Shown here piece after piece: positions 9,854-42,933 of a stretch of 64,000 bases of DNA; positions within the stretch are counted from its first letter, which is position 1, and each line of letters opens with the position of its first letter. The stretch covers positions 213,504 through 277,503 of the forward strand of contig JBGQGB010000001.1 of assembly GCA_041497195.1 (NCBI GenBank), read 5' to 3'. The stretch comes from Candidatus Doudnabacteria bacterium. GTDB taxonomy: Bacteria > Patescibacteriota > Doudnabacteria > UBA920 > 2-01-FULL-46-14. A model generated the notes under the pieces. That model saw nothing but the letters and a program-made list of their open reading frames with translations. It was not told the DNA's origin and searched no databases. The position numbers and the translations under genes were made by a program.

Positions 9854-9905
9854 CAAATCGAACCAAAAGTAAAACAAAACGCAAAACGATACATCCAAGC
9901 TTTCT

Positions 9906-13438: not shown

Positions 13439-13441
13439 ATT

Positions 13442-19199: not shown

Positions 19200-19562
19200 T
19201 TAGCGGGCGATGAGCACTAAACCGAAAATGACCAAAACGACGCCGGCGAATTGCATCAGACTGATTGTCTCGCGCAAAAACAACCAAGAAAAAAATAGCA
19301 CCAAAATGTAGTTCAAACTGGTAAAAGGTATCGCGACACTTAATTTCAGCTTGGACAGAACCAAGAGCCAGAACATAAAACCAAAACCGAGGCTCACCAA
19401 CCCCAGAAATAAATAGAGATTTGTGAAAACTTTCGGAATGAGGTCCAAAAAATTCCGCAGGGAAAACTCCACTACCCCAATTTTGGTCATGCCCAATTTG
19501 ATGAGCACTTGGGCCGCAACTGTCAGAATAATGCTGACGAACAACAATACGTAAGTTATCAT
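19200..19562 (-). CDS. small 4-TM membrane protein (SMR/EamA-like; ArnE/ArnF-type flippase candidate)
   Basis: 120 aa with four hydrophobic helices, sited in the glycan cluster. Confidence 0.4.
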   Translation of the reverse strand: MITYVLLFVSIILTVAAQVLIKLGMTKIGVVEFSLRNFLDLIPKVFTNLYLFLGLVSLGFGFMFWLLVLSKLKLSVAIPFTSLNYILVLFFSWLFLRETISLMQFAGVVLVIFGLVLIAR

Positions 19563-21589
19563 AATTGGTTTATTTGATTTAAAACGTAAATATCTACGGT
19601 TTGAAGCGAGCGTTGCAAATGATAAGAACTCTGAATGCCCCGGAGAAAATATTCGACCTGGTCATTGCGGTAAGCATCGCGGCCAACTAGCACTACAGGC
19701 AATCGGTTTTGCCGAACCTGACGAATGTATTTATCCATTTCGGACTGGAAATATATCGTGAAGGTATAATAAAAATCAAAATAATTCGCTTTGTCTGCAT
19801 ATATTAGAAATTTCGTGTCGTTCTTGGACATGATCGGGATGCGCTCGGTAGCGAAATTTTGGGAGACAAATTTGGCATCCTGATAAGTGCTCTGATCCTC
19901 CGGCCGCACTCCCAACAAATTCTGTCGCATTGTCGCATATTGTCTGACGGAGAATTCTACTGGCAGTTTAAAACAAAATAGCAATAAAGCATACACCAGT
20001 AATCCGAAAAACGCCCCGCTAATCAGCTTGCCGGAATCGCTCGGCCCCTCCCGGTCCTGAACATATTTAAAAGCGTAAAACACAATCAGGATGAACGGCA
20101 CCGTTACGACATAGAGTAGCTGCCACGTGGACTCTCCAACATAATAAATCAGCGAAGTCGCGCCAAAAGCTCCCAAAAAGAACAAGGGCATGTCAATCAT
20201 TGGTTCTTTTTTCCAGAGGCGGTAAACCGCGACTAGCAAAACAACTAGGTAAGAAAAATAAAAAAGCTCGTACAAACCAATAGGCGGCAATGGATACATT
20301 CCCGCGCCCTGAGTAAAGTACTTCGTTTCTTTGAGAAAAAGGTGCCAGTCTGGCCACCCGCCATAAATGCCATGATTAATGAGATTGATTGCGGCAAACA
20401 GACCCACCGCGTAAAGTCCGTAGAACAGGATGATTTTCAATACTCTCTTGAGATCCCAATTATGTGCCAACTCGCGATAGATGAGGGTCGCCACAGTCGC
20501 CACAGTCAGATATAATCCAGAATCAAAATTCCAAAATATGGCGACAGCAGATAGCGCCAAAGCCACGTGCATAAATTTTGGCTTTAGCGTTTTGGAATAT
20601 TGATAAATTGCCAATAAAGTCGGCAAATAGAGCCCCCACCGAAACGGGCTCATCCCGGGAAAAAACAAGACCGATCTTGAAAAACTGTTTTGAAAAAAAT
20701 AAAGGATAGAAACAATCGTCGCAGTCGCCAAGCTAGCGAGAGTGTAGGATTTTAGCCAAAGCCGGGCAAACAAAAAAATTCCGATAAAAAGCAAAAAATA
20801 ACACACAGTAATTATGAGGGCCAGCATCGGGTAAGTCATGGGAATAAGCTTAAACACCCCGGCCAGCAAGTATACGTCGAGCAATCCATATAGATGCGAA
20901 GACTCATATAACATGGCCTTACCGTGGTAGACGTCGTTCACTGCTCCAAGGTAATAATTGAAATGGTGGGTATCAAGCGGAAAACTTGGGTTAAAAATCA
21001 AGATTCCGAGGATAATAACCAAAACTGGCCAAAATCTTCGAAAAAATTTCTCCGTACGCTCGTGCGAATAAAATTTAGTATTGTATTTGCCCAGAAAATA
21101 AAAACCAGCCACAAACAAACCGCTCAAAAGCAAAACTGCGTGGGCGACTAGAATCCGCTTTGTCGTAAGCAACCACAAAATATGCCAGATCCCTTTTTTT
21201 TCCACAAGACTCAACAAAGCCCCCAGCTTAATGAGGCTCGAAAGTTTCTTTAGAACAACTGCTCCAGCGCCAAGCAAGGCAATCAAGGATAAACCGATTA
21301 GATGTTTTTTTCTGATTCGCGAAACGAGCGGCACCAATACTAAAGCTAAAGTTGGAACCACCAAATAACTCAGGACATAGAGCGGGGCCTCAAACGGCTC
21401 AGCTTGCATAAATGTCGGGCCAAAGCTGAGGAAAAGACCGACCGGCCTTCCATCAATGCCCATGTAATGATAAAGCCAATTCTGGAAATACCGGGCTGAC
21501 AAAAAATAAATGATTGTGCCGGTTCCGAGGGCCAGGAAATACTGTTTCTTGTTGCTCAGCACTGAATCCAAGCTCATTTCAATTCGCAA
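19559..21589 (-). CDS. large polytopic membrane protein (676 aa), GT-C-like candidate; paralog of 34681-36711
   Basis: At least 12 TM helices. Shares blocks with the second copy (PFExPLYxLSY, LYE..YG.L..YL.A, FWN.D.G.Y, YYVG.S.W). Confidence 0.45.
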   Translation of the reverse strand: MRIEMSLDSVLSNKKQYFLALGTGTIIYFLSARYFQNWLYHYMGIDGRPVGLFLSFGPTFMQAEPFEAPLYVLSYLVVPTLALVLVPLVSRIRKKHLIGLSLIALLGAGAVVLKKLSSLIKLGALLSLVEKKGIWHILWLLTTKRILVAHAVLLLSGLFVAGFYFLGKYNTKFYSHERTEKFFRRFWPVLVIILGILIFNPSFPLDTHHFNYYLGAVNDVYHGKAMLYESSHLYGLLDVYLLAGVFKLIPMTYPMLALIITVCYFLLFIGIFLFARLWLKSYTLASLATATIVSILYFFQNSFSRSVLFFPGMSPFRWGLYLPTLLAIYQYSKTLKPKFMHVALALSAVAIFWNFDSGLYLTVATVATLIYRELAHNWDLKRVLKIILFYGLYAVGLFAAINLINHGIYGGWPDWHLFLKETKYFTQGAGMYPLPPIGLYELFYFSYLVVLLVAVYRLWKKEPMIDMPLFFLGAFGATSLIYYVGESTWQLLYVVTVPFILIVFYAFKYVQDREGPSDSGKLISGAFFGLLVYALLLFCFKLPVEFSVRQYATMRQNLLGVRPEDQSTYQDAKFVSQNFATERIPIMSKNDTKFLIYADKANYFDFYYTFTIYFQSEMDKYIRQVRQNRLPVVLVGRDAYRNDQVEYFLRGIQSSYHLQRSLQTVDIYVLNQINQL

Positions 21590-21614
21590 ATATTAAGTAG
21601 GTAATCTAGGAATT

Positions 21615-22769
21615 TTATACGTCGATTGAAAAATCCTTTTGAAAGCGCAAACGGCCTTGCCGTCCGAATTCTCTGGCCAACTTCTTATCTCGAATCAGGG
21701 CGGCAATCGCGGCTGTAAACTCTTCTGTCTGCAAGGGATCCCGAATAAAACCTGTCTTCCCATCTTCCACCATTTCTCCGCTTCCCCCGAATATAGTGGC
21801 TACCACCGGACGCGCCGCCCGCATCGCTTCTAAAACCACGGTCGGCAGTGAATCAAAGCAAATTGAGGGAACAATCACCACACCGCAATCACGCATGGCC
21901 TCCTGATAACGAGTTTCATCCAACCAGCCGGTAAAGTTTAGTAAATTTTCCACGCCCAGACGGCGCGCCAAATCAAACATTTTTTCGGTTATCGGCCCCT
22001 GAGCTCCAACTATTCGCAACTTAACTTCAAGTTTATATTTTTCACGTAGTTTATGCAAATATTTTACCGCTTCCAATGCGCCTTTTGATGAAAAAAGTCT
22101 GCCCCCGAAAAAAATCGTGTCGTCAAAAATTTCGCTCGGCGCTTGCTTGAGGTCTGGGATTTTATTGTGCACAACTTTGTCAATCTCGATACCATTAGCG
22201 TTCAAAAAACTCGCCAGAGCTTGGCTTACGGCATAACGGACAGTGGCCAATCGCAAAAATCTGCGTATGAAAAAGTTGCGGAATGGATTGAAAGCAAACT
22301 TTGCTTGTTGCAGATGCCGCCACCAAGAATAGCGATACTGAAACCTGTAGCCATCGACCGAAGCACTATAAGGAATATTGCAGAATTTTACATACGGCGT
22401 AACGGAAACGACGTCGTGCAAAGTTATCACTGACTTGATGCCGCGACTCCTTAAAATGCGTAAACAATAATATGACCAGTTAGTGTGGATATTGTGAAGG
22501 TAGACTTCCTGCGGACGGAATCTGTTTAGCTCTTTCTGCAAAATTTTGATTGCGCGCGGGTGGTACAGTCCCAGATAGTTTCTCCACCGAGGATGATAAT
22601 CCAAATTATAAGTTCGGATCTGATACTCGGCCGGATTAAAACCAGCGGGGCTGTGGGCGGCAAGAACCAGGGCTTCATGCCCATGAGCCAAATGCTGGGC
22701 CTCTATCATAGCAATCGTGCCCGCTCCCCCGCCTGTGCCAAAATGGTCAGTCAAAATCAAAATTTTCAT
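21615..22769 (-). CDS. glycosyltransferase family 4
   Basis: Retaining GT-B layout, with a C-terminal ...FGGSGEMVEDGKTGF... (EX7E-like) motif. Confidence 0.7.
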   Translation of the reverse strand: MKILILTDHFGTGGGAGTIAMIEAQHLAHGHEALVLAAHSPAGFNPAEYQIRTYNLDYHPRWRNYLGLYHPRAIKILQKELNRFRPQEVYLHNIHTNWSYYCLRILRSRGIKSVITLHDVVSVTPYVKFCNIPYSASVDGYRFQYRYSWWRHLQQAKFAFNPFRNFFIRRFLRLATVRYAVSQALASFLNANGIEIDKVVHNKIPDLKQAPSEIFDDTIFFGGRLFSSKGALEAVKYLHKLREKYKLEVKLRIVGAQGPITEKMFDLARRLGVENLLNFTGWLDETRYQEAMRDCGVVIVPSICFDSLPTVVLEAMRAARPVVATIFGGSGEMVEDGKTGFIRDPLQTEEFTAAIAALIRDKKLAREFGRQGRLRFQKDFSIDV

Positions 22770-23452
22770 TTAGGTGATTTTTGAGAAGCTTCCTTGCGAC
22801 CTAAAAAATACATGCCGCCGGCAACCTTGGAAACATCCGGACGGCTTAGCAAAAAATAATCCAAATATTTCAGCGGAGCAACTAAAATTTTCATAGAATT
22901 TTTGAAGACAAATTTAAAAAAAGCACTTTTGGGCCAAAGCTGAGCGTACTCGACTAAGATCCAGGCGATCCCCGAACCTGGTCCATTGGTAATCCCTGTT
23001 TGCAGCTCTTTGAAATTCCGACACAGCAATCTCATTCCGCTGAGAGTCCAGCGCTGGTAATCTCCAGGCGCTTCATGATAGGGCTGTAAAAAGGGAAATT
23101 CAATATAAAGCTCCCCGCCAACTTTGAGCACGCGCCACGCTTCGTTAATTATTACTTGCGGCTCTTTCACATGTTCCAAAAGTCCACCATTGAATACGAC
23201 GTCTACGCTCTCGTCCAGAAAGGGCAAATTCTCCCCAAAAGCCTTGATAGTGTTTGGACCCCCTCGATAGGGATCAACATTTACAGCTCCCGGAACAGGA
23301 TCATAACCTCCGGATCCCACGTTGATAATTTTTTTCCCTTGTAAATTTTTATATCTTGCCAAAACTCTAGAATAATTATTGGTTGGATAGAAAATTCCGC
23401 CACGATAAAAAGACTTTCCTAACGTCTTTTTTATTTGCAAGAACATGTTCAC
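22766..23452 (-). CDS. class I SAM-dependent methyltransferase
   Basis: KIINVGSGG glycine-rich motif and an LKVGGELYIEF region. Shares an ATGA overlap with the upstream GT4. Confidence 0.6.
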   Translation of the reverse strand: MNMFLQIKKTLGKSFYRGGIFYPTNNYSRVLARYKNLQGKKIINVGSGGYDPVPGAVNVDPYRGGPNTIKAFGENLPFLDESVDVVFNGGLLEHVKEPQVIINEAWRVLKVGGELYIEFPFLQPYHEAPGDYQRWTLSGMRLLCRNFKELQTGITNGPGSGIAWILVEYAQLWPKSAFFKFVFKNSMKILVAPLKYLDYFLLSRPDVSKVAGGMYFLGRKEASQKSPK

Positions 23453-23459
23453 AAATTTA

Positions 23460-24218
23460 TCACTTTATCCCACAGGCTAAAATTTCAGTGAATAGATCAC
23501 GCTTAGTCGGCGGATCATATTCAATCATGAACGGATTCCATCCGAATAAAAAATAGAAAAAATTGACAAGCCAGGTCCCAAAATGCCTGTTACCAAAATT
23601 ACGAAATGTGTAACTATACAACCCATACCAAAAAATATGGTGAGTCAATTTGAGCTGAACCGCACTAAAATATTCTGCCATAATTTTTTCCAGTTCTTTC
23701 GGAAAAAACTCTCGGACATGATTCGAATCAGCAGGAATTTCTGAAAGCCGATGTGGAGTACTCAAAACCAATTTCCCTCCTGCACGCAAAACCCGCCTCG
23801 CTTCCATAAGCATTTTTTCCGGATACTGTAAATGCTCGATCACTTCGCAGCTAACCACCAAATCAAAGCTTTCTTCGGGAAAGGGCAATTCGTAAGCCGA
23901 GCCAAGGACAAAATCGTAACGAAGATTGTGTTTTCTATCTTGCGAAGCCAAATTTTCCTGTGCGAATTTAATTCCCAATTCTTCATTGTCGACGCCGGTA
24001 ATAATCGCCCCTTGTTCGGCCAAGAGAAAAGTCAGCGCCCCGTCCCCGCAACCCAGATCCAATATTTTCTTGCCCCGAATATCCCCGGCTATTTTGACGA
24101 TCCAATCATAACGAGCCTGCTGAAAAGCGTTAAATTTTCTAATGTCCCGACTGACCATCTCGCGCCAATGGATGCTGCCCCGGTCTTGGTACTTATTAAA
24201 TACTTTCTCTTCGGTCAT
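23460..24218 (-). CDS. class I SAM-dependent methyltransferase
   Basis: ILDLGCGDGALT and LRAGGKLVLSTP. The start is taken at MTEEK to limit overlap with the wzx gene. Confidence 0.65.
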   Translation of the reverse strand: MTEEKVFNKYQDRGSIHWREMVSRDIRKFNAFQQARYDWIVKIAGDIRGKKILDLGCGDGALTFLLAEQGAIITGVDNEELGIKFAQENLASQDRKHNLRYDFVLGSAYELPFPEESFDLVVSCEVIEHLQYPEKMLMEARRVLRAGGKLVLSTPHRLSEIPADSNHVREFFPKELEKIMAEYFSAVQLKLTHHIFWYGLYSYTFRNFGNRHFGTWLVNFFYFLFGWNPFMIEYDPPTKRDLFTEILACGIK

Positions 24219-25539
24219 TTTTTTGCGCAAAGAAAAATAAATATAAATAAGACAAAAAATTCGGCAGAAACGCAAAAATCAGAGTCGTCGCTATCAATCC
24301 TTTAATATGATGAAACCGAATTAGGTAATAAGAAGTGGGGATGAGGCACGTTAAATTGATGAACTGAATCGCAACCAAGACTCGCATTTTGTTCAGAGTT
24401 CGAAATAGCGGCGCAATGCCCACGTCCGCGGCAATGATTGCTGGATACAAAGCCAAACCGTAAATCAAGCGGATACTCGGTTTGTATTGCGGAAAAATCA
24501 GTTCAATGACCGGACTGGCTAACAAGACCATTAGGAGGATGATCGCTAGCATAACGGCTAAGGATACCAAACTGACTTGCCAAAACCGACGAAACAACTT
24601 CTGCGGACCCGCCGTTTGCGTAAAAGAAAATTGCACGTCCAAAAGTCTGGTTACTGGATCCAAAAGCAAAAGCGGCAAGGATACATAGGCCAAAGCAATC
24701 TTGTAAAATCCAATCCCTGAATCAGTTGCCATAAAATACCCCGTAAACAACAGCGGGACCGTACCTACAAATTTGATCAAATTTTTTCCCACCGCAATCT
24801 CCATGGAAAATCGGAAAAATTGCTTGAATTTTTTCCAGGAAAGTCGCTGGCGGAAAAATTCGCCCATCTTCGGGACCAATGGCTCGACTTTTACCAGCTG
24901 CTGATAAACTATAATGCCCACGATGCTAATGATTATGGTGGCAACAAGCTGGCCGATAACAATTCCGAAAACTTTGAGCCCCAGCAAAACCAAGCCCAAT
25001 GGGACGAGCGCCATCAAAATTTTGTTGCTGGATTCCAAAATCGCCAGTGATTTCATTTTCCGCCAGACCTGAAGAACAATCGCAGCCAAAGGGTAAAAAA
25101 AGGTCAGGGCCGTGATTGCCACGACAATTGCCGCCAACTCCCCTAAATACCGATCATGATAAAATTTGTCTCCTAAATACGGGGCCAACAGAAAACCCGC
25201 AAGACCGGTAGTGAAGAGACCGATGATTGAAACTAACCCAAAAAAATTCAAAACCTGGTTAGTTTCTGCAAAATCGTTCTGACTTCGAGCCCTGGCCAAA
25301 AGGTTGATAGCTGCCTGACCAATCCCAAAGTCTTGAAAGATATTGATCGTTCCACCCAAGGCAAATACTAAACCGTAAAAACCATACTGTTCCGGCCCCA
25401 GGATCCGGGCAAAAATTAAAGACGCCAATACCGCGACAGCCCGGGCGAGGATTGAAGAAGTCTGCAAAACCGCGACGTCTTTTGTAAACGGATGGGAGAC
25501 CCACTTCAAAATTTTTTCTTTCAGACTAGGCAGATTCAT
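24196..25539 (-). CDS. wzx: oligosaccharide/polysaccharide flippase (Wzx, MOP superfamily)
   Basis: 447 aa, about 12 TM helices, polysacc_synt-type topology. Confidence 0.65.
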   Translation of the reverse strand: MNLPSLKEKILKWVSHPFTKDVAVLQTSSILARAVAVLASLIFARILGPEQYGFYGLVFALGGTINIFQDFGIGQAAINLLARARSQNDFAETNQVLNFFGLVSIIGLFTTGLAGFLLAPYLGDKFYHDRYLGELAAIVVAITALTFFYPLAAIVLQVWRKMKSLAILESSNKILMALVPLGLVLLGLKVFGIVIGQLVATIIISIVGIIVYQQLVKVEPLVPKMGEFFRQRLSWKKFKQFFRFSMEIAVGKNLIKFVGTVPLLFTGYFMATDSGIGFYKIALAYVSLPLLLLDPVTRLLDVQFSFTQTAGPQKLFRRFWQVSLVSLAVMLAIILLMVLLASPVIELIFPQYKPSIRLIYGLALYPAIIAADVGIAPLFRTLNKMRVLVAIQFINLTCLIPTSYYLIRFHHIKGLIATTLIFAFLPNFLSYLYLFFFAQKNDRRESI

Positions 25540-27920
25540 AGAGTATATTGAAAAACTATCCTGTGTTTCCCTGGCGGTATTGGTATGGCTTGATTGAGAT
25601 AATTGGCCCGGTAAACGGTCACGGAAATACCGTCAATGGTTGCGCGCCACCCAGGATAAAAATTCTGACCAAACAACATAATCCGCGACGTCTGGGCGCT
25701 CACCATAAATTCAAAATCACTGTTCGAACTTTTAAGCTCCGTGATATTCCCTTCCCCTGCTTGGTTCGTCGGGCACGGCTGATCGCATTCAACTAGCACT
25801 GCATCTCTTGTAGCGGCTTCCAAATTCTTCTGCCAAGACTGAGCTTCAGATAAAAGATTGTCAAAAACCACGTTATTAGCCAAATAATACCGCGGCTTGA
25901 CTTGTAAATTTTGATAGAGATACAGAGGAATCTCATACTTTGTGGCACGCCAGGTAAACACCTCCTTCAAAGTCGGATCAGTCAGCGGATAGGCACTGAC
26001 GACATATTTGACGTTATATTCCGACAGCAGGGGCAATCTCTCAAGAAACAACTTTATTTTATCGTCCAGAGAAAGCTTTTCGTCCACGAGAATGCCAGAA
26101 GTTTCCAGGGAGCGGTCGCTGCCTAAATAGGCTAGGAGCCGACTGTGGCGGCGATCCATGATGTTATCATAATAATCCAACGAATCCACCCCGTAATAAG
26201 GACCAAGATTGGGAACCAGCAGATTTTTTAATAATTCTACGTTCTGAACCGAATCATAACCGTACGGGGTATCAAGCTTGTCAAAAACGGTAAAACCGGA
26301 AAACAAAGTCAGTACTCGAAAATTGCTCTGGTCTCTTTTCAAATATTCTACCAGCGGAGGTGGAGTATTGAGCTGCTGTGCGCTGACAAAATTGAAACTG
26401 GCAAAATCAATTAAAACCAAATTCAAAAAAGTCAAACTAACAACGTAAAAAATAAAGCGGCGCTCTCCTAGACTCCGCCTAAAATAAAACAGTGTCGAGC
26501 CGAGTGCCAGCGAAATAACTGCTGCCGAAATCGGTATGTTCGGAAAAGTCGTCCCTGTTTTGATCTTCCCGACTAACTGCTCCACTACTTGATAATAGTG
26601 CTCTGTTGGTAAAGTCAGGCTGCCGCTCATGGCTCGATTTTGGATATAATGTGCGGCTTTGCTACTAGCTAGAAAACTAATTGTAGGAAAAATTATGGAC
26701 CAGGAGGCAAATATTCCGGCGATTGATAAAGTAATTACCATTAAAAACTTTGAAAGTTTCAAACCTAATGCGGGCTGTCGTAATAGAGTCTCAAACCCGT
26801 ATGCAGAAACGACGGTGGCAGCAAAAATTCCCACGTAAACTAGTCTTGATAAACCTCGAAAGGATTGAAACAAAGGTAAATGATGTATCACCCACATGAG
26901 GGGTGAATATTTTACCGACGCTGCTATCGATAAAACAGCAAGCCAGGCAAAAAATTTGTAAAATGCGCCTTTCGCTCCAAAAAAAGAAAAAATGACTAGG
27001 AGCGACGGCACGGCGCCCAGATAAAACAAGCCGGGCTGGGTGATGCCGACGGGCAGAGATAGATTGGGAAAAATCAAAGACAGTAAATCGCCTGGCAAAA
27101 CAGCGCCCAATTGTGCGTCTGCAAAACTCACCCCGCCTGCCCGCGAAGACAGCTGACTAGCTAGCAACGACGCGTGAAACTGCGGCCAAAATAAAACGGC
27201 CGCGATAGCCAAAGTAAACCCGGCAAATACAAGGGTTTGAAATTTAAAGAGGACGACGGTTCCCAGGTGTTTATTGTGGAAGTCCAAAAACAGCGCCCAA
27301 ACCCCTGCTGCAAAAAGGGCCTGCAGAGACCATTGAAAATGAGCGGCCAGCATGACTGTCCCGATGAGTCCTCCGGCAAATATAGCCATCAAGATAGATT
27401 TTTTGTAAGACTGGCTCGTGGAAAAATATAAAAAGAAAAAAAACAAAGCAGGCAACAATATGTCTCCCGAAGTCACCGTCATATTTGCGGACCAAACAAA
27501 GTACGCTGCCGTCCAGGGTAAAACGAGTCCGGCAAAAACGGCCACGACTTTTCTCAACCCAAGCCGCGATACCAATTCGAAAGTAAAAATCGAGATCAGC
27601 CAGACATTCACAAAAGTGACCCAAGAAAAAACGGCTAGCACTGAAAAATTTTTATAAAGCAACTGGTTGAGCCATGACAGCAACCCCCCCATCAACCCGG
27701 CGACGGGAACAAAACCAGTGAGAACATGCGGATTCCAAAAAATCGACTTTCCCGCCAGCAATGATTCACGCAAAAACTGTAAACTTGTATATTGCTGCAA
27801 AATGACGTCGCCGTCGGCAAAAATTTGTTTGGCAAACAAAATCGGAAAAAAAATAACAAGCCCGGGCAGGGCGAGTATTGAATAAATGGTTAATTTGCGA
27901 AATATAGTCCTAAAATTCAT
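25536..27920 (-). CDS. YfhO-like GT-C membrane glycosyltransferase candidate (794 aa)
   Basis: N-terminal FAKQIFADGDVILQQYTSLQFLRESLLAGKSIFWNPHVLTGFP is typical of the YfhO family. Many TM helices and a C-terminal soluble domain. Confidence 0.5.
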   Translation of the reverse strand: MNFRTIFRKLTIYSILALPGLVIFFPILFAKQIFADGDVILQQYTSLQFLRESLLAGKSIFWNPHVLTGFVPVAGLMGGLLSWLNQLLYKNFSVLAVFSWVTFVNVWLISIFTFELVSRLGLRKVVAVFAGLVLPWTAAYFVWSANMTVTSGDILLPALFFFFLYFSTSQSYKKSILMAIFAGGLIGTVMLAAHFQWSLQALFAAGVWALFLDFHNKHLGTVVLFKFQTLVFAGFTLAIAAVLFWPQFHASLLASQLSSRAGGVSFADAQLGAVLPGDLLSLIFPNLSLPVGITQPGLFYLGAVPSLLVIFSFFGAKGAFYKFFAWLAVLSIAASVKYSPLMWVIHHLPLFQSFRGLSRLVYVGIFAATVVSAYGFETLLRQPALGLKLSKFLMVITLSIAGIFASWSIIFPTISFLASSKAAHYIQNRAMSGSLTLPTEHYYQVVEQLVGKIKTGTTFPNIPISAAVISLALGSTLFYFRRSLGERRFIFYVVSLTFLNLVLIDFASFNFVSAQQLNTPPPLVEYLKRDQSNFRVLTLFSGFTVFDKLDTPYGYDSVQNVELLKNLLVPNLGPYYGVDSLDYYDNIMDRRHSRLLAYLGSDRSLETSGILVDEKLSLDDKIKLFLERLPLLSEYNVKYVVSAYPLTDPTLKEVFTWRATKYEIPLYLYQNLQVKPRYYLANNVVFDNLLSEAQSWQKNLEAATRDAVLVECDQPCPTNQAGEGNITELKSSNSDFEFMVSAQTSRIMLFGQNFYPGWRATIDGISVTVYRANYLNQAIPIPPGKHRIVFQYTL

Positions 27921-27922
27921 AC

Positions 27923-28666
27923 TCAGCGAACTTTGCGTCCGATAATTATGACCGATGACCCGATCGGAAAACTTAAAAATCTCAAGAGCCGAGATTCAAT
28001 TTTAGAAAAAAACACGAACATTTTGTTGAGTACCTCCGGTAATTCCACGTAGCTGAATTGGGGATGAAATCGTTTTTCTTGAAAATGCCCGACCGCTCGA
28101 TAAAAAAATACGAGAGGAAATACGAAAAAGAAAATGTAACTTGATTTGACGGTCACAAACCCAGCTTCCGCCAATTTGGCTTCCAAGTCTTTTCTTCGAT
28201 AACGCCTCACATGATGCACCGCGTCGTCGAGCTCACTCCACAAAAACTTGAACGCCGGCACGCTTAGCAAAACATATCCACTCAGTTTCAGAATTCGATT
28301 AATCTCCTGCAGCGCCTTCTTGTCGTCTTCAAAATGCTCCAAGACATCAAACATGGTTACCAGATCGGCTGATTTGTCAGGCAAGCCAGTTTCGTAAAAT
28401 CCCTTCATCAGAGCGACAGTGTCCAAACCCTTGCTGCGACAAAAATCCAAGGCGCGGGGTTCTATATCTAAACCGAGGACTTTTCCGTGTTTTCGCAACA
28501 TTACAAAATTTCCCCCCGTCCCGCAACCAATATCTACGATTTTGCTACTCTGCGCCGGCTGATGAAAAAAACGCTCCAACAGCTTATCAAAAATATAACG
28601 ACGCCCCAGATACCACCAATACCGATTTTCAAGCTCATCAGTCTTATCGTAGGCCTCTTGCCGCAT
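27923..28666 (-). CDS. class I SAM-dependent methyltransferase
   Basis: IVDIGCGTGGN. The start is moved to the Met that overlaps the upstream stop by 1 nt (TAATG). Confidence 0.65.
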   Translation of the reverse strand: MRQEAYDKTDELENRYWWYLGRRYIFDKLLERFFHQPAQSSKIVDIGCGTGGNFVMLRKHGKVLGLDIEPRALDFCRSKGLDTVALMKGFYETGLPDKSADLVTMFDVLEHFEDDKKALQEINRILKLSGYVLLSVPAFKFLWSELDDAVHHVRRYRRKDLEAKLAEAGFVTVKSSYIFFFVFPLVFFYRAVGHFQEKRFHPQFSYVELPEVLNKMFVFFSKIESRLLRFLSFPIGSSVIIIGRKVR

Positions 28667-29919
28667 TACAAAATCCTTTCTGACCCGATGGGGACGATGA
28701 ATTTGCCTCCGTTCTGGCGAAAGTTTTGTTCTTTTTCCAGCACAACGTTTTTGTAATTCCAAGCCAACAGAAAAGCATAATCCGTGTGATCTTTCCGAAA
28801 TTCGGACACATGGACTACGGGAACGTGCGTTCCCGGGGTATAGAGACCGATTTTCGAAGGAAGCTCCTCAGTAGAATAATCAAGAATATCTATCCCGATA
28901 CCGAAATAATTCAAGAGGGTGTTCCCTTTTGCCGGCGCGCCATAACCAACTATTTTTTTCCCCTGTTTTTTAAGGTCCCGTAACAGACTCACAACTTCAG
29001 CTTTTAATTCTGCAATACGGCGAGCTAGGTCTGTGTATGAGTCCAACTGGTTCAGTTTTAATTTCAGCTCTTTCGCGACTAGATTTTGCACCGAGGGCAT
29101 TATTGGTCTGGCTCCGTGTTTGCAAGCAAAAACTCGAATGGAATTGCCCTGTATTGGGTGAATCTCCACGTCAAAAATGTCCATATCATGTTGAGCAAAA
29201 AGTCGCAATAAGGGACGGGCTGCCAAATACGACAAATGTTCGTGATAAATCGTATCGAACGAAAGGTTTTCAAACATGTCCAAAAGATACGGCGCCTCGA
29301 ACACAAACACCCCGTCATCCGTCAACAATTCCCTGACGCCCTTCGCCAGATCGTGATGATTGTTGATATGCGCGACCACATTGTTGCCAACAATCACTTT
29401 TGCCCGACCCTGCTTGGTGGCGATGTGTTTGGCAATTTTTTCGGAAAAAAAATCAGGCAAGGTCGGAATCCCCCGCTTGTTGGCGCTTTCGGCGATATTC
29501 TTCGCTGGATCAATCCCCAGAATCCGGCATCCTGATTCTTTCACCACCGCCAGGAAATGACCGTCATTACTGCCAATTTCAACGGCCAAGTCATCTTTTG
29601 ACCCAATAAATTTCTGTACTATCGACTCCGCATAATCGCGAAAATGTTTCGAGGCTGGCATTCCTGAAGAAAAGTATAAATAATCACGAAACATGATCTT
29701 TGGATCGACTACGTCCCGGAGTTGCACTAGTCCGCAATCGTTGCAAAATACCACCCTCAGTGGATAAACAGGCTCTGGGGTACTGAGCTGGTCGGCGCGC
29801 AAAAAGGAATTTGCCAGAGGCTGCTCTCCCAGATCTAAAAATTGGACTAAAGAAGCATTGCCGCAAATGCGACAGCTAGATATTTGCCTAACTCCAGCGG
29901 CCATTCGATTGTCTTTCAT
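28666..29919 (-). CDS. NDP-hexose C-methyltransferase (TylCIII/EvaC family: zinc-ribbon plus class I MTase plus C-terminal C-MT domain)
   Basis: N-terminal CRICGN...FCNDCGLVQL zinc ribbon, EIGSNDG SAM motif, 417 aa. Confidence 0.7.
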   Translation of the reverse strand: MKDNRMAAGVRQISSCRICGNASLVQFLDLGEQPLANSFLRADQLSTPEPVYPLRVVFCNDCGLVQLRDVVDPKIMFRDYLYFSSGMPASKHFRDYAESIVQKFIGSKDDLAVEIGSNDGHFLAVVKESGCRILGIDPAKNIAESANKRGIPTLPDFFSEKIAKHIATKQGRAKVIVGNNVVAHINNHHDLAKGVRELLTDDGVFVFEAPYLLDMFENLSFDTIYHEHLSYLAARPLLRLFAQHDMDIFDVEIHPIQGNSIRVFACKHGARPIMPSVQNLVAKELKLKLNQLDSYTDLARRIAELKAEVVSLLRDLKKQGKKIVGYGAPAKGNTLLNYFGIGIDILDYSTEELPSKIGLYTPGTHVPVVHVSEFRKDHTDYAFLLAWNYKNVVLEKEQNFRQNGGKFIVPIGSERIL

Positions 29920-30952
29920 AGTGATCCAAAAAACCAGGTTTCAGGCGGATATTCTTCCACCAAGACTCATTCGCAACATACCAATTTACAACCTCCTCGA
30001 TGGCATTTTGAAAACTATGAATGCGCGACCAACCCAACTCTTTCTGAAGCTTGGAGGAATCGGGAGCATAGCGATTATCAGCTCCCGGCCGATCATTCAC
30101 GTGATGCCTATGCTCTTCCGGATTTTTTTGCAAATGTTTGGCCAGCGCAGCAATAACGGCCAAATTGGATAACTCTTCGCCGGCGACATTATAAACTGAA
30201 TGATTGGAAGCTTGCTGAATGATCAGATCAATGGCTCGACAAAAATCCTGCACATGCAACCAGCTGCGGATATGGCGGCCATCGCCGTGAATGGGAACTT
30301 TTTTGCCTTCGAGCATGTTCGTGACGGCTAGTGGAATCAGCTTTTCCGGATACTGATACGGGCCGTAATTATTGGAGCCGCGAACGATGATGGCGGGCAG
30401 ATTATGAGTCCGCATATAAGCTTGAACCATCAGGTCAGCCCCGGCTTTCGAAGCAGAATAGGGATTGGAAGGCCTAAGCGGCGCTTCCTCAGACGCGTAG
30501 CCTTCGCTCATCGAGCCGTAAACCTCGTCGGTGGAAACATGGATAAACCGCGGAACGCCGTATTTTCTCGCCGCCTCGATCAAGCAACGGGTACCGTCGA
30601 TATTGGTGCGAATAAAATGGATCACGTTGAAGATCGCCCGGTCGACGTGTGACTCGGCGGCAAAATGCACGATCAGATCAAATTTATGTTCGGAAAAAAT
30701 TTGGTCCAAAAGAGACTCGTTGCAGATATCGCCTTGAATAAATTCATACCTGCCGTCTTTCGGCTCCAGCTGAGCCTCCCGAAATTCGATGTCCTTGAGA
30801 TTGTCGGGATTTCCGGCATAGGTCAACAAATCGAGGTTGGTGATTCGCGCATGCGGATAAGTATGATAGAAATAACGAATAAAATTCGAGCCGATAAAGC
30901 CCGAACCACCAGTAATCAAAACTTTATGAAACCGCTGACTGGCACCGTTCAT
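29888..30952 (-). CDS. rfbB: dTDP-glucose 4,6-dehydratase
   Basis: VLITGGSGFIGSNF, YSASKAGAD (YxxxK), extended SDR, 354 aa. Confidence 0.8.
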   Translation of the reverse strand: MNGASQRFHKVLITGGSGFIGSNFIRYFYHTYPHARITNLDLLTYAGNPDNLKDIEFREAQLEPKDGRYEFIQGDICNESLLDQIFSEHKFDLIVHFAAESHVDRAIFNVIHFIRTNIDGTRCLIEAARKYGVPRFIHVSTDEVYGSMSEGYASEEAPLRPSNPYSASKAGADLMVQAYMRTHNLPAIIVRGSNNYGPYQYPEKLIPLAVTNMLEGKKVPIHGDGRHIRSWLHVQDFCRAIDLIIQQASNHSVYNVAGEELSNLAVIAALAKHLQKNPEEHRHHVNDRPGADNRYAPDSSKLQKELGWSRIHSFQNAIEEVVNWYVANESWWKNIRLKPGFLDHYERQSNGRWS

Positions 30953-31683: not shown

Positions 31684-31752
31684 GTGATTAAATACACAGT
31701 TAAAAAGTCCACTTCAGTATAACAAAAAAATGCCCTTATTTCAAGCATTTTC

Positions 31753-32640: not shown

Positions 32641-32645
32641 GTTCT

Positions 32646-33023
32646 TTAGATTAATTTGACCCGAATCGTATCGTCTTCGTAATGTGCCTGATTGCGCGGC
32701 TGGGTCGAGAAAGTCCAAAATACGGTGTCTTCAAGAAATTTGACAGCGTGGATCGTCAGCGGCGGCGTGCAAACCATGTCACCGGCATTCAAAATTTCTT
32801 TTTCAATTTCTCCTCCAGACGCCGGTTTTTCGTACCATTCGGCTTTACCGGAGACGATATAGCACCAGTGCTGATCTTTTTTGTGATAATGATTGGAGCG
32901 GACTGAGCCAGTTTTGGATGTGATATAAAGGATGCTGTGAATCGGCTCCTCCGTATCCAAAACCCGCATGATGACTCCCCGCTCCTCGATGATTTCCGGC
33001 TTGATGTTTCTGGTAATATTCAT
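32646..33023 (-). CDS. cupin-fold protein (WxcM/FdtA-like sugar ketoisomerase candidate)
   Basis: 125 aa, HYHKKDQHW ... cupin motifs. Lies next to an oxidoreductase. Confidence 0.4.
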   Translation of the reverse strand: MNITRNIKPEIIEERGVIMRVLDTEEPIHSILYITSKTGSVRSNHYHKKDQHWCYIVSGKAEWYEKPASGGEIEKEILNAGDMVCTPPLTIHAVKFLEDTVFWTFSTQPRNQAHYEDDTIRVKLI

Positions 33024-33159
33024 GGATTGTGCAAAAATTTTAAACGCGAATGCTCATTCAGCATAACAAAAAAAAAGTCTTCCCGCAACTATTTATTACG
33101 GTTGACACTCCTGGTTTTTTCAAATACACTGAGATATTGTAAAACGAGAAGGAGAAACT

Positions 33160-33810
33160 ATGAACCCTCATGGGTGGAACTCACTAAACTTGTTTCGCGC
33201 TCAAACTTTGGCTCTGAGCGACGGGCCGCCAAAACCTGTGGATGCAATTTTTCTCCACACTCGAGCCAAGGGCGACGATGACCAACTTTTTGAAATTGCC
33301 GCTAAAGCGCTCCGAACTGGACTCGCTCGCTACGTGATTACTAACGGTTCTGACGGGCAGTCCCACCGGCGTGGGCCAGGCAGTGGTTGGGCCGGAAAAG
33401 ACGCATGGGTGAAAGCCCTGCGGAAGCTTGGTATTCGCGAAACAGCAATTTTGCTCTGCCAGCCCGCTCTCGACACGCGGGAAGAAAACACTCAATTTTT
33501 AGAAACGGCCGTAAGTCACGGATTCAAACGAGTCGCAATTCTGGCACAACCTCACCAGGTGCTCCGCGCCATGCTCGGACTGTTGAAAGAAATGGATTTG
33601 CAGAAGCATTACTTGCAAGTTTACGTGATGACGCCTCAGTCCTGCCCGTGGTGGCGCAAGGTCTACGGCTCCCAAGGGCTTCATTTGAAACCCCGGTTTG
33701 AGCATATAGAGGACGAAGCTTCTCGCATCGAAAAATATGCTACAAAAGGAGATCTAGCTACTCCCAGTGAATACTTCGCGTACCTGAAACACCGCGACCA
33801 GGTGAAATAA
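33160..33810 (+). CDS. DUF218 (YdcF/ElyC/SanA-like) domain protein, GC-rich
   Basis: Core pattern ...YVITNGSDG...ALDTREENTQFL...VAILAQPHQVLRA resembles the DUF218 fold. Confidence 0.45.
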   Translation: MNPHGWNSLNLFRAQTLALSDGPPKPVDAIFLHTRAKGDDDQLFEIAAKALRTGLARYVITNGSDGQSHRRGPGSGWAGKDAWVKALRKLGIRETAILLCQPALDTREENTQFLETAVSHGFKRVAILAQPHQVLRAMLGLLKEMDLQKHYLQVYVMTPQSCPWWRKVYGSQGLHLKPRFEHIEDEASRIEKYATKGDLATPSEYFAYLKHRDQVK

Positions 33811-33828
33811 AGTGAACCAGCCTGCAGA

Positions 33829-33865
33829 GCTGCTTAGGATCAAGTGGTCCTAAGCAGCTTTTTTT
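33829..33865 (+). terminator. rho-independent terminator
   Basis: Perfect 11-bp stem GCTGCTTAGGA/TCCTAAGCAGC with an 8-nt loop, followed by TTTTTTT. Confidence 0.65.
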
Positions 33866-33887
33866 ATTTCCTGCTACTTTTGAGGGG

Positions 33888-33916
33888 TTGACAGAACGCC
33901 AAAATCCTGCTAAAAT
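33888..33916 (+). promoter_or_regulatory. consensus sigma70 promoter (-35 TTGACA, 17-nt spacer, -10 TAAAAT)
   Basis: Near-perfect hexamers about 55 nt upstream of the AGGAGG/ATG of the gene at 33973. Confidence 0.6.
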
Positions 33917-33972
33917 CCATTTTCAAATAAAAATCAAGATCGCACTTTTTGCAACGCCCATTAGGAGGGAAC

Positions 33973-34557
33973 ATGAAAAAACTAAGGGGAAGTTTGCTAC
34001 AGGAGATTAAGGCTCATCGGCTCATTCGGCCTGGCCGGCTAAACTGGACCAACCTCGAAATTGCAATCGCCGTGTCTATTCTCAAAAAGTTCGCCACGTG
34101 TCGCCAAAATGGATGGATCGTTCCCTTCGCGGTATTTGAGGCTCACGCTGAAGGCACGAAACTGGTGAACTCTGATGTGGCAATTATTGACCCTCGCGGC
34201 CGGATCTACCTAATAGAACGCGGGGCCAAAGAGCTATGGGCTGGCCAACTGCATTTGCCGGGGTGCACGCATGCCTACGAAACCCTCAAACAGGCCACGC
34301 AACGGCTCCTCGACAACGAACTCAAACTCTTTAGGCTCAAGCTGGCTGATCTGTGTCACATCGGCGAGCCTCTCGAAATGCAGGATCTACCAAGAGGCCC
34401 GATCCAATCCAACCTGTTCATTGCACGTATCGAAAGGATTCCCCAAGGAATCAAGGGTCGCTTCTATGCAGCAAAAGAAATTCTGTGGAAGCGACTGGTG
34501 GTCTCCCACCGGAAGGTCTCTCTTCCGTGGTTAATAAACCACCACTACCTCAAATAG
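33973..34557 (+). CDS. hypothetical protein (194 aa), possibly a divergent Nudix-like fold
   Basis: AGGAGG SD 7 nt upstream of the ATG. The ORF-track start is a TTG inside the SD region. Confidence 0.4.
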   Translation: MKKLRGSLLQEIKAHRLIRPGRLNWTNLEIAIAVSILKKFATCRQNGWIVPFAVFEAHAEGTKLVNSDVAIIDPRGRIYLIERGAKELWAGQLHLPGCTHAYETLKQATQRLLDNELKLFRLKLADLCHIGEPLEMQDLPRGPIQSNLFIARIERIPQGIKGRFYAAKEILWKRLVVSHRKVSLPWLINHHYLK

Positions 34558-34680
34558 GGTTTCCTCTATCCTCTATTTACCCGGCGACTGCTTCATTTCT
34601 GGCGGTCGTCGTTTTTTTTGCGCCGATTTTTGCGAAACTGGGAATAAATAAATTCGTTCCGTTTTACAGTTCCGCAGTAT

Positions 34681-36711
34681 TCAAAAACCTTTTAAACGAT
34701 AAATCTTCAGGGTGTTCAGGGTTTTTTCCAACTCGTAGTGTTGTTTTGCAAAATTCTCAAGATCAGCTATCCGGACGTCATAATTTTTGTAAAGAAAAAC
34801 GTGTTCGGGCTGCGAAGCAGCTAATTGTTCCGTCAGCGCTTTGACCTGGCTATGAAAGACGATTTGATAGTCATCATACACGCGGTATAACTTCTGGCCG
34901 TTTTGGGTACTATAGAAAAAATTTATCTTCCCCGCCATCAGCAGCAACTTTCCGTCGTCAGGATGGAATAGCGGTATGGCTTCTTCTGAGTAATGCTCCT
35001 TGATATATCGGGCATCTTCGTAAATCTGCTGGTCCTTTGGCGCGATTGCGGTCAAGCTTATTTTGGAATAATCGCGATAAGCAAACACTACCGGCAATTT
35101 GGCCAAGCTTAGTGTGGCAAAAAAAGCGAGAAACGCGCCCAGAGCTGCCGACATGAACCGTTTCCAAGTTTTTTGATCGGAAAACGCAAAATAGCGGTAA
35201 AACGCGGACCACAACAAAAGCAGCATGGACAAAGACGTTGCATTCAAATAACTCCAGGCAGAATTACCGACATAATAAGTCAAAGCAAAAATGCCGTAAA
35301 CGGTGAAAAAAACGGTAAGTAAATGTTCGGGGCGCCGGCGCCACAACCCCGTCGCTATCCAAACGGCAAAGCCCGAATAGACCAGCACGAAGATTTCAAA
35401 CAGGCCGACTTTCGGCATCGGGAGCTTGCCAAACCCCTGCTCAAATCCGGTCAAAACCAACCAGACGAATCTCCATTTCGGCCACTGATGATAGAGGAGC
35501 CGATTGAGGCCGCCAATCACCCCAAAAACTATGGCGATATAGCCCGCCTGTTCCAAACCGGCAATCAGTATTTTTCGAAGTTTCGGCCAAAACCGGGCGA
35601 CGCGAATGTGAACGTCATAGCCCAAGGTGGCAAACACTGCGATATTGACATAAATTCCCGTATCAACGTTCCAAAATAAAGCCAAAGCCGAGAAAAAAAG
35701 AAGCAATTGTCTCTTTCCTGTACTGGGAAATTTAACGTACCGGGAGATCAGCCAAGCTAATACTATGTAAAACCCCTGCCGGTATACCGTCTGGCCGGGA
35801 AAATCATACGGCGTGAGATAAGGATCAGTAAGGAGGAAAAAATTCACGACAACCGCGAGCCATGTCCCCACCAGAGCGAACAGATCTGAATTCATCCAGT
35901 TTTTCAAGGTCCGGTAAACCAAAACGAAAAAGGTAAAATACAATACCATCAGGATTACCGAGAAAGCCTGGTACGATATCGGCAGCAGAAATTTCATGAT
36001 TGCGGCCACCAAATAAGTGTTCAAGATCCCATAGATACCGACGGTTTCATACAGCAGGGGTTGGCCCCGCAGCATCAGATCGACGGGAGAGACTACCATG
36101 TTCGTATATCCTTCGGCAGAAGGAAAATTGGGATGAAAAACGATCAGGGCTAGAAAGACAAAAAAATAAGGGACAATTTTTTTCAGGCGCGGAGACTGGT
36201 TGAGGGTCTGTAACCAGAGGGTTTTACTTTGCCGCCAAAACACGACCGAAAATGCAAAAATTGCGGCCAAAAAGGATAGCCGGACGATGTAAATCCTTTT
36301 GGTGAACAAAAGCCAAGCCAAGTGCCAGAGGCTTCTTCTCTGAAAATATCCCGTCGCAAAAGCCCAGCTTGGAAGATGGACGCGAAAAACCAGCCTCGAC
36401 GCATAAACAATACCCGCCAGGACCGCAGTTCCGGCAACATACTGGAAAACTTTCGAATTGCGCAGAGAATAAAAAACCAAGGCCAGAAGCGGGATGACCG
36501 CATAGCTGAGAAAATAAAGGGGAATTTCGAACGGTTCGGGCAAGATGGGAAATCCCGGATAGGCGTCAACCATTTCAAAATTCCAAAACGTGAAGTGGTT
36601 CTGAAACACCCGGGACGCAATAAAATAGATTAGTACGCTTGGTACCAGCCACAGCGCGTAACTGGCGAAATCGAATGTTTTGAATGATTCGAAAAATTTT
36701 ATGGACTTCAT
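34681..36711 (-). CDS. large polytopic membrane protein (676 aa), GT-C-like candidate; paralog of 19559-21589
   Basis: Same length and shared blocks with the first copy. At least 12 TM helices. Confidence 0.45.
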   Translation of the reverse strand: MKSIKFFESFKTFDFASYALWLVPSVLIYFIASRVFQNHFTFWNFEMVDAYPGFPILPEPFEIPLYFLSYAVIPLLALVFYSLRNSKVFQYVAGTAVLAGIVYASRLVFRVHLPSWAFATGYFQRRSLWHLAWLLFTKRIYIVRLSFLAAIFAFSVVFWRQSKTLWLQTLNQSPRLKKIVPYFFVFLALIVFHPNFPSAEGYTNMVVSPVDLMLRGQPLLYETVGIYGILNTYLVAAIMKFLLPISYQAFSVILMVLYFTFFVLVYRTLKNWMNSDLFALVGTWLAVVVNFFLLTDPYLTPYDFPGQTVYRQGFYIVLAWLISRYVKFPSTGKRQLLLFFSALALFWNVDTGIYVNIAVFATLGYDVHIRVARFWPKLRKILIAGLEQAGYIAIVFGVIGGLNRLLYHQWPKWRFVWLVLTGFEQGFGKLPMPKVGLFEIFVLVYSGFAVWIATGLWRRRPEHLLTVFFTVYGIFALTYYVGNSAWSYLNATSLSMLLLLWSAFYRYFAFSDQKTWKRFMSAALGAFLAFFATLSLAKLPVVFAYRDYSKISLTAIAPKDQQIYEDARYIKEHYSEEAIPLFHPDDGKLLLMAGKINFFYSTQNGQKLYRVYDDYQIVFHSQVKALTEQLAASQPEHVFLYKNYDVRIADLENFAKQHYELEKTLNTLKIYRLKGF

Positions 36712-39945: not shown

Positions 39946-40338
39946 CTACGTTTTGAAAGTCCAGTGTTTATGGGCGAAAAAAGAAAACAGGACCATCACC
40001 ACCAAAAGCACGGTCTGGGCCGCAATCGGACGCCACTTTACCCACTCCACGAGCACCACCAGCCCGCCCAGACCAATCAGGTACTGGACGGCGTAAACGG
40101 CAAAAAACTTCAGAATTTCTCCGAAACGCCGGCTGGCAATGCGAAAGGTAAAGTATTTATTCCACAAATAGCTGTTGGTCACGGCTAGCGCGAAAGACAA
40201 AACTGACGCCAGCACGTAGTGCAATTTTAAAAAAACGAACAGGACGAAAAAACCATAGGCCACGCCGGTATTGAGCGCTCCCACCAAAAGAAATCTCGAA
40301 AACGGAGAGTTATTAACCCGGCTCCACGGTCCGTTCAT
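39946..40338 (-). CDS. GtrA-family 4-TM protein (polyprenol-P-sugar flippase candidate)
   Basis: 130 aa, FLLVGALNTGVAYGFFVLFV..., GtrA-like topology. Adjacent to a GtrB-like GT2. Confidence 0.65.
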   Translation of the reverse strand: MNGPWSRVNNSPFSRFLLVGALNTGVAYGFFVLFVFLKLHYVLASVLSFALAVTNSYLWNKYFTFRIASRRFGEILKFFAVYAVQYLIGLGGLVVLVEWVKWRPIAAQTVLLVVMVLFSFFAHKHWTFKT

Positions 40339-42905: not shown

Positions 42906-42933
42906 AAAAAAATAAATTATCGGATTTACTGAT

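Follow-up and report, generated by a model that had tools for sequence, protein, structure and literature searches.

The stretch of DNA considered here (64,000 nucleotides of contig JBGQGB010000001.1, from a Candidatus Doudnabacteria bacterium; henceforth the window, in whose positions all coordinates are given) carries type IV pilus genes at 7482-15196 and, with these directly upstream, a surface-glycan island that occupies 15.3-64 kb in one long stretch. Within the island, two co-directional minus-strand operons carry the genes for two large polytopic membrane proteins, designated A (open reading frame (ORF) 19559-21589) and B (ORF 34681-36711), together with their partner genes (Table 1). 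A and B are probably catalytic transferases, specific for their acceptors, of a hitherto unclassified family with the glycosyltransferase (GT)-C fold. An earlier note on this DNA (the original prediction) had proposed a multi-copy extracytoplasmic glycosylation set of GT-C type; matches to GT-C folds, acidic residues in outer loops and the gene context support such a set, fed by polyprenyl-phosphate-sugar synthases and small flippases. The organism, uncultured and ultra-small, belongs to the Candidate Phyla Radiation (CPR)/Patescibacteria, which live attached to host cells and about which little is known of how the surface is built.

Operon 1 runs from 33023 down to 19200. It begins with genes for a cupin, a GFO/IDH/MocA oxidoreductase, a GT2 of 244 amino acids (aa), a nucleoside diphosphate (NDP)-sugar 4,6-dehydratase, a sugar C-methyltransferase and an S-adenosylmethionine (SAM) methyltransferase, and continues with those for a 794-aa membrane protein, Wzx, two SAM methyltransferases, a GT4, A and a 120-aa protein with four transmembrane (TM) helices. 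It is flanked by the genes for a Wzy_C protein with a tetratricopeptide repeat (TPR) tail and for a Bac_transf phosphoglycosyl transferase, which are candidate makers of the acceptor glycan. Operon 2, hereafter the B operon, runs from 43902 down to 34681 and consists of nine co-directional genes with gaps of -26 to 172 nt: an epimerase/reductase, a thiamine pyrophosphate (TPP) enzyme, a GT2 with two C-terminal TM helices, GtrA, a NUDIX protein, a protein without an assigned family, an RfbH-like pyridoxal phosphate (PLP) enzyme, a SAM methyltransferase and, last, B. The DNA of the window is matched by one 364-kb JGI metagenome contig and by two metagenome-assembled genomes (MAGs) at NCBI.

A and B can be aligned over their full length by BLASTP (191/675 identities, or 28%; 48% positives; E 3e-72) and are therefore true paralogs, as had been claimed, with both ORFs lying where they had been placed. 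The equal length of 676 aa ascribed to them holds for the ORFs as listed but, for A, hinges on a TTG start at 21589; an ATG lies 12 nt downstream and gives 672 aa, so that the agreement in length is partly a matter of start-codon choice. The exact 676-aa translation of A is missing from a collection of 15 billion proteins in which B and the 794-aa protein are present; gene callers probably start A at the downstream ATG. A search with the family hidden Markov model (HMM) found no further copies in the window. The closest ortholog of A (48% identical) is found in the Parcubacteria MAG GCA_016196625.1, whereas a different gene on the contig with the A ortholog is 45% identical to B, and an ENA contig carries one that is 43% identical. 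When 28 family members are placed in a neighbour-joining tree, the two paralogs come out in separate clades with several genomes in each, some genomes being represented in both. Judged from these sequences, the duplication that gave rise to A and B is ancient.

It had also been asked whether the pair arose by a recent segmental duplication, within this genome, of a cassette comprising a methyltransferase and a membrane protein, and the listing of both genes at 676 codons, each with a SAM methyltransferase gene nearby, would be in keeping with such an event. The proteins are just 28% identical, the equal length needs the TTG start of A, the two loci share no DNA similarity by blastn, and a comparison of the methyltransferases (22766-23452 and 36708-37334) gives no significant match. 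Because each copy has its own orthologs in other Patescibacteria, in different clades, and the neighbouring methyltransferases are unrelated, a recent duplication of this kind is extremely improbable and may be regarded as ruled out. It should be noted that the ATGA overlap with a methyltransferase gene, reported for both copies, exists for B but not for A, whose direct upstream neighbour is the GT4 gene, at a gap of 25 nt; the methyltransferase at 22766-23452 overlaps the GT4 gene, and the separation of this methyltransferase from A by the GT4 gene had already been recognized.

A word-indexed search retrieved nine relatives of A and B with 38-46% identity, all unnamed or annotated as 'hypothetical' and all from Parcubacteria/Patescibacteria MAGs. 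An exhaustive profile search extended the family to 1,481 cluster representatives at E <=1e-3 (759 at 1e-10 and 89 at 1e-30); counted at 50% clustering, the family has approximately 1,500 distinct relatives. Amongst GTDB species representatives, searched with an 11-member alignment to give a list that is skewed towards close relatives, the family is present in MAGs labelled Parcubacteria, Saccharibacteria, Doudnabacteria and Roizmanbacteria, and in two labelled Gammaproteobacteria, a label that may be mistaken. The family is usually multi-copy: of the loci examined (numbered L001 onwards), L014 has four members, L007, L009, L016 and L017 have three each, and L002, L008, L010, L011 and L012 have two each. 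In L014 (2372-11841), L016 and L017, which come from Roizmanbacteria and a MAG labelled Gammaproteobacteria, three or four distant members form tandem arrays interleaved with methyltransferases. Some distant members carry a C-terminal Laminin_G_3 or CBM96 domain; one with CBM96 directly follows a GtrA gene, and one with Laminin_G_3 abuts a 245-aa GT2 inside a Wzx/Wzy_C cluster. A literature search for GT-C proteins in connection with Patescibacteria or the Candidate Phyla Radiation found no report.

The structure of B was predicted with AlphaFold2 (AF2) from an alignment of 11 sequences. The model (mean predicted local distance difference test (pLDDT) score 77; predicted TM-score (pTM) 0.81) has approximately 15 long helices and a C-terminal alpha/beta domain, at about residues 558-676, that is predicted to lie outside. 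When the model was compared with the PDB by Foldseek, the 24 top matches were all GT-C fold proteins, amongst them STT3, PglB, AglB, Pmt4, AftA, EmbA/B/C, ALG9, ALG3 and PIG-U, a subunit of the glycosylphosphatidylinositol (GPI) transamidase. The E-values ranged from 1e-3 to 0.3 and the TM-scores from 0.3 to 0.48, with a probability of 1.00 for the best-ranked matches; unrelated membrane proteins appeared only at probabilities below 0.1. All confident matches are to GT-C proteins and none is to a transporter or other non-glycosyltransferase family; a match of the latter kind is what the original prediction had named as telling against it. The large polytopic domain of A and B is like that of solved GT-C enzymes, weakly so in absolute terms. 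As a calibration, the YfhO-type 794-aa protein encoded nearby yields the same list of matches with somewhat better E-values.

The density of lysine and arginine alternates between successive loops, in the 11-member alignment as in one of 113 members, and the N-terminus is therefore predicted to lie inside and the C-terminal domain outside. Nearly all of the polar residues conserved in the family fall in predicted outer loops (residue numbers are those of B unless stated, and percentages refer to the 113 members). E59 and E62, which belong to a PEPxE motif, are invariant in 11 close members; position 59 is glutamate in 77% of the wider set, and position 62 is acidic in 92%. A second acidic column (D211 in B, D219 in A; aspartate or glutamate in 86%) lies in a 55-residue loop, 192-246, which also carries a G216/K217/L220/Y227/G228 block and two short helices. 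R311 and D350 are each conserved in 97%, and W347, P411, W413, Y479 and S484 are conserved across the family as well. Conserved acidic residues thus lie, on the predicted topology, in an extracytoplasmic loop near the N-terminal TM helices, where the GT-C superfamily has them; the absence of a periplasmic acidic motif is what the original prediction had named as telling against it. A cluster of acidic and basic residues on the outer face has the look of a GT-C active site that binds a polyprenyl-phosphate sugar, as in the structures of ArnT, PglB and PMT enzymes (PMC11127046).

The second line of evidence is the B operon, in which a lipid-sugar synthase, GtrA and B are encoded together, as are the three components of Gtr-type systems, B being a GT-C protein at the level of the fold only. 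The synthase, a GT2 of the ArnC/PgfS/GtrB type, shows 29% full-length identity to E. coli ArnC (E 2e-45); its match to PgfS is below the equivalog cut-off. The claim of a GtrA-like gene is borne out by Pfam, and that of two polyprenol-phosphate-sugar synthases stands for this GT2, with the 244-aa GT2 of operon 1 a possible second. A module of epimerase, ArnC-like GT2, GtrA, in some cases the RfbH-like enzyme, methyltransferase and B-type gene is seen again in L002 and L013, and ArnC-like GT2 genes are also found near the family arrays of L009 and L018. The pairing of the methyltransferase with B-type genes is conserved: orthologs lie beside those of B in L002 (50% identity, overlapping) and L007 (29%, on the opposite strand), and L013 has an ortholog (E 1e-69) approximately 2.9 kb upstream of a B-type fragment. 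The TPP enzyme and the epimerase/reductase are candidates for branching and for reducing the sugar; both are found with B-type genes in L002 and L009, and in these CPR contigs the pair of RfbH-like and TPP enzymes also accompanies B-type genes. By analogy, this pairing is reminiscent of the synthesis of branched-chain 3,6-dideoxyhexoses of the yersiniose type, and knowledge of such pathways suggests that the sugar of the B operon is 3,6-dideoxy and possibly branched.

The case for A and B as GT-C enzymes is made from fold and gene context, and a number of observations weigh against it. The E-values and TM-scores of the fold matches are modest, and pLDDT is low in loops that bear several of the conserved motifs. 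The topology rests on the positive-inside rule and the AF2 helices, and one loop (111-138) is rich in lysine and arginine though predicted to be outside, the sole irregularity. At the level of sequence, A and B have no meaningful match in Pfam or NCBIfam (only a sub-threshold LiaI-LiaF); 65 diverse relatives share no recurrent Pfam family at E-values up to 1; and a sequence search of the PDB with 11- and 65-member profiles gave chance matches only. A profile link to YfhO or ArnT, for which the original prediction had suggested looking, proved negative: hhalign gave a probability of 6% for the family profile against the YfhO-type protein alignment and of 1% against E. coli ArnT. PMT_2 has no match in the 65 family members, the WWD motif and an STT3 Pfam match are absent from A and B, and neither protein matches Wzy_C. 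Since these tests fail, A and B are not members of the YfhO, GT83/PMT_2, STT3 or Wzy_C families, the likeness being one of fold. Finally, one strong and one doubtful lipid-sugar synthase have to serve three putative GT-C enzymes, and the other loci examined have no ArnE/F-like gene, such as follows A here, next to their A orthologs.

Observations of this kind might also be accommodated if A and B were not enzymes at all but polytopic membrane proteins with a scaffolding, export or flipping role and a mere likeness to GT-C proteins, of which the non-catalytic PIG-U is an example; PIG-U is amongst the fold matches of B, the fold E-values are weak and there is no sequence link to catalytic GT-C families. 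We think this unlikely. Strongly conserved acidic and basic residues gather on the outer loops, as is typical of a catalytic site that binds a phosphate-linked sugar; relatives carry carbohydrate-binding modules at the outer C-terminus; the island already has transport candidates in Wzx, GtrA and the ArnE/F-like protein; and no transporter fold was matched above a probability of 0.1.

Alternatively, A and B might be GT-C-like and use oligosaccharides linked to polyprenyl diphosphate, as oligosaccharyltransferases (acting, for example, on the pilins encoded next door), glycan polymerases or ligases. The oligosaccharyltransferases STT3, PglB and AglB are the best Foldseek matches, but the GT-C subfamilies are ranked within only about one log of E-value, too narrow a span to tell them apart. 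Diphosphate-linked units are made and flipped by an initiating phosphoglycosyl transferase and Wzx, both encoded in the island, which also adjoins type IV pilus genes, and no Wzy polymerase is clearly identified besides the Wzy_C/TPR protein; on the other hand, that protein is already a dedicated Wzy_C component, and A and B lack the WWD motif and any STT3 or Wzy_C signal in Pfam. The partners conserved in the operon are a monophosphate-sugar synthase and GtrA, and distant family members abut short GT2 or GtrA genes. A diphosphate-linked donor is therefore the less favoured of the two, with a low chance of being correct, and we retain the reading of A and B as transferases of lipid-linked monophosphate sugars. 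Paralogy, fold likeness, the placing of conserved residues in predicted outer loops, and operon structure with its conservation are observed; catalysis by A and B, their lipid-linked donor, the sugar and the acceptor are what we infer.

In the B operon, a modified deoxy sugar would first be made as a nucleotide sugar, for which the RfbH-like enzyme, the TPP enzyme, the epimerase and the methyltransferase are candidates. The ArnC/PgfS-like GT2 would then move the sugar onto polyprenyl phosphate, GtrA would flip the lipid-linked sugar across the membrane, and B would transfer it to a surface glycan or protein. A may have the same role with a different donor or acceptor, with the overlapping ArnE/F-like protein as its flippase, and the divergent YfhO protein may act as a third transferase of this kind. 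The sugars would probably be accepted by the Wzx/Wzy-type polymer of the island itself, or else by surface proteins. More tentatively, A and B may represent a lineage-expanded, unclassified GT-C family, a candidate for a new CAZy family, with which CPR/Patescibacteria, by means of tandem arrays of two to four copies, assemble or elaborate an envelope glycan, largely on the outer side of the membrane, from heavily modified sugars on lipid carriers, in a manner closer to the Emb/Aft enzymes of mycobacterial arabinan than to the Gtr systems that add a single side chain. The family could then supply the missing cell-surface glycan chemistry of episymbiotic bacteria; we regard this wider proposal as rather speculative.

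Table 1. Features of the pilus genes, the two operons and their surroundings, in window coordinates.
Feature	Position	Strand	Remarks
PilM/N/O	7482-9795		
Minor pilin-like genes	within 7482-15196		within the type IV pilus genes
PilC	12221-13438		
PilB	13442-15196		
Wzy_C protein (O-antigen ligase/polymerase-type) with C-terminal TPR tail, 816 aa	15298-17748	-	Wzy_C E 1.4e-22
Divergent Bac_transf initiating phosphoglycosyl transferase	17814-19193	+	Pfam
120-aa protein, 4 TM helices, EamA/SMR-like, ArnF/ArnE-like	19200-19562	-	ArnF 4e-14, ArnE 4e-10 (NCBIfam, both below cut-off); Pfam EamA 9e-13
Paralog A, 676 aa from TTG (672 aa from ATG)	19559-21589	-	28% identity to B
GT4 glycosyltransferase, two SAM methyltransferases, Wzx-type flippase	21615-25539	-	between the YfhO-like gene and A
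794-aa divergent YfhO-family GT-C protein	25536-27920	-	DGD at residues 36-38; beta-rich C-terminal domain
SAM methyltransferase, sugar C-methyltransferase (28666-29919), NDP-sugar 4,6-dehydratase	27923-30952	-	upstream of the YfhO-like gene
244-aa soluble GT2, no TM helix	30949-31683	-	Pfam GT2 6e-30
Paralog B, 676 aa	34681-36711	-	unclassified GT-C-like family
Soluble class I SAM methyltransferase	36708-37334	-	stop overlaps the start of B (ATGA)
RfbH-like PLP enzyme (3-deoxygenation step of 3,6-dideoxyhexose synthesis)	37338-38558	-	NCBIfam RfbH E 1e-105, below cut-off; Pfam DegT
GtrA-family small membrane protein, candidate flippase	39946-40338	-	Pfam GtrA_DPMS_TM, E 3e-26
GT2, ArnC/PgfS/GtrB-type polyprenyl-phosphate-sugar synthase, two C-terminal TM helices	40313-41278	-	PgfS 8e-79, ArnC 3e-44 (NCBIfam)
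TPP-dependent acetolactate-synthase-like enzyme (41283-42905) and NAD epimerase/reductase (42934-43902)	41283-43902	-	head of the B operon
PseB/FlaA1-like dehydratase, DegT aminotransferase, DUF218, NeuB, formyltransferase-like gene	44042-48516	+	

A and the 120-aa gene overlap by 4 nt, stop to start, in the layout of arnT and arnE in E. coli K-12, and the 120-aa protein is a candidate flippase for a polyprenyl-phosphate-sugar. The block of GT4, methyltransferase and Wzx genes upstream of A also adjoins A-type genes in L011. The 244-aa GT2 has full-length matches to the dolichyl-phosphate-hexose transferase DPM1 and to PpgS at about 5e-11, far below cut-off; these matches are weak, and the protein is possibly a synthase of the DPM1/PpgS type. 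The ArnE/F-like gene, the Wzy_C/TPR protein, Wzx and the phosphoglycosyl transferase were all absent from the original prediction.

The 794-aa protein had been described as YfhO-like at its N-terminus. The homology to YfhO stands but not its location, as the protein's own match to PF09586 covers residues 726-793, at the C-terminus only (E 1.2e-5; 24.3 bits against a gathering score of 28.5). PF09586 is matched by 15 of 16 aligned homologs (best 2.7e-33), and a 788-aa homolog aligns over 97% of the protein. The AF2 model (pLDDT 85) matches AftD (2.7e-6) and ArnT (8.4e-5) in Foldseek, and the DGD motif lies in the first outer loop; an extracellular DXD has been described for the YfhO-type proteins PgtC2 and PgfM1 (bioRxiv 10.1101/2024.05.05.592596). 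Given these matches of the homologs, the GT-C fold and the position of the DGD motif, the 794-aa protein is best taken as a divergent form of YfhO, of GT-C fold and a member of that family by transitive homology. Its ortholog travels with the A/B family in L001/L007, L009, L010, L011 and L012, and an ortholog (62% identity) of the methyltransferase encoded upstream of it keeps that position in L001, L007 and L009.

Elsewhere in the island, the sugar C-methyltransferase of operon 1 combines the zinc-binding N-terminal domain Methyltransf_13 with a C-terminal Methyltransf_14. At least six further class I SAM methyltransferases are spread throughout, and the number of methyltransferases in the island suggests that the glycan is unusually heavily methylated. 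The plus-strand genes at 44042-48516 form a nonulosonic-acid block of the pseudaminic/legionaminic type (Table 1). On the minus strand, at 53954-58264, a GT9 heptosyltransferase-like gene lies beside PfkB kinase-cupin and cytidylyltransferase-HAD phosphatase fusions, a set that looks like a heptose-activation route; this lineage is not known to make lipopolysaccharide, and such a route is unexpected in it. Neither Pfam nor NCBIfam matches several ORFs of 197-453 aa, at 9906-11860 (-), 33160-34557 (+), 38694-39299 (-) and 51534-52787 (-); these include a 453-aa protein next to the minor-pilin genes and two plus-strand genes between the operons. The Wzy_C family includes pilin O-oligosaccharyltransferases, and since the Wzy_C/TPR protein adjoins the pilus genes, pilin glycosylation is a possible use of the island glycan.

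If the proposed function of A and B is correct, a new glycosyltransferase family would be added, and glycosylation outside the cytoplasm by way of lipid carriers would emerge as a major and diversified activity of these reduced genomes. E59, E62, D211, R311 and D350 of B, together with the self-contained nine-gene module, would then be concrete targets for heterologous testing. The family, hitherto annotated as 'hypothetical', recurs as multi-copy arrays in four CPR lineages, and its GT-C kinship is recognizable by fold and context only.

There are precedents. Several GT-C enzymes proven by experiment lack a Pfam domain, and one flippase can serve several GT-A/GT-C pairs (PMC8035078); GT136 was itself founded on a GT-C enzyme without sequence similarity to existing families (PMC11127046). 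The closest parallels are the GtrA-GtrB-Gtr* systems of Shigella and Salmonella and the CsbB/GtcA/YfhO systems of Bacillus, Listeria, Staphylococcus and Lactococcus, in which a GT2 synthase with C-terminal TM helices, a GtrA-family protein and a polytopic GT-C-like protein are likewise encoded together (PMC8035078). Several GT-C genes per genome are also found in these systems, as for CsdB/D/F of L. lactis and YfhO/YkoS/YkcB of B. subtilis (PMC8035078). They differ in that no sequence relation to YfhO, PMT_2 or any other named family could be detected for A and B, whose family combines about 15 predicted TM helices with a small C-terminal domain of alpha/beta type; in that the host here is a CPR bacterium, where teichoic acids are not established; and in that the B operon is also a candidate for making its own unusual deoxy or branched, methylated sugar.

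With the Arn pathway of Enterobacteria (ArnC, ArnE/ArnF and ArnT, the last of GT83), the island shares an ArnC homolog and, at A, the 4-nt overlap by which arnE follows arnT. The profile similarity of A and B to ArnT is lacking, there is one small subunit instead of the ArnE/ArnF pair, and its ArnF match is below the NCBIfam cut-off. No lipid A is to be expected in this organism. The three-component pentofuranose system of Citrobacter youngae, whose ORF12 founded GT136 (PMC11127046), resembles the present case in that a GT-C protein was recognized by structure prediction and gene context, in a C-terminal carbohydrate-binding module like that of some distant relatives of A and B, and in its MATE or SMR-type flippase partners. 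ORF12 has 11 TM helices, and its LGDGHEY after TM1 (the D31/E34/Y35 motif, as read from the mutagenesis primers in the supplement) has no counterpart in A or B, which have instead PExxE and the loop (H)xN..LGP.ND..GK..L....YG. The phosphoribosyl pyrophosphate (PRPP)-dependent polyprenyl-phosphoribose synthase of GT136 systems is not present here. Protein O-glycosylation by Pgf and GtrB/PgtC2 in streptococci (bioRxiv 10.1101/2024.05.05.592596) has in common with the island a GT2, that of the B operon being closest to PgfS, and a YfhO-type GT-C enzyme with an extracellular DXD that acts on surface proteins, to be compared with the DGD of the 794-aa protein; it differs in that nothing here identifies Ser/Thr-rich acceptor proteins and in that A and B are not of the YfhO family. 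Because known systems show several GT-A/GT-C pairs per genome, shared flippases and GT-C components without a Pfam domain, the architecture is familiar, being of the known kind called multi-component transmembrane glycosylation, and at its centre stands a GT-C-like family that had not been described. The novelty lies in the A/B family itself and in its expansion in CPR bacteria; the advance is one of family discovery and distribution, the type of mechanism being already well known.

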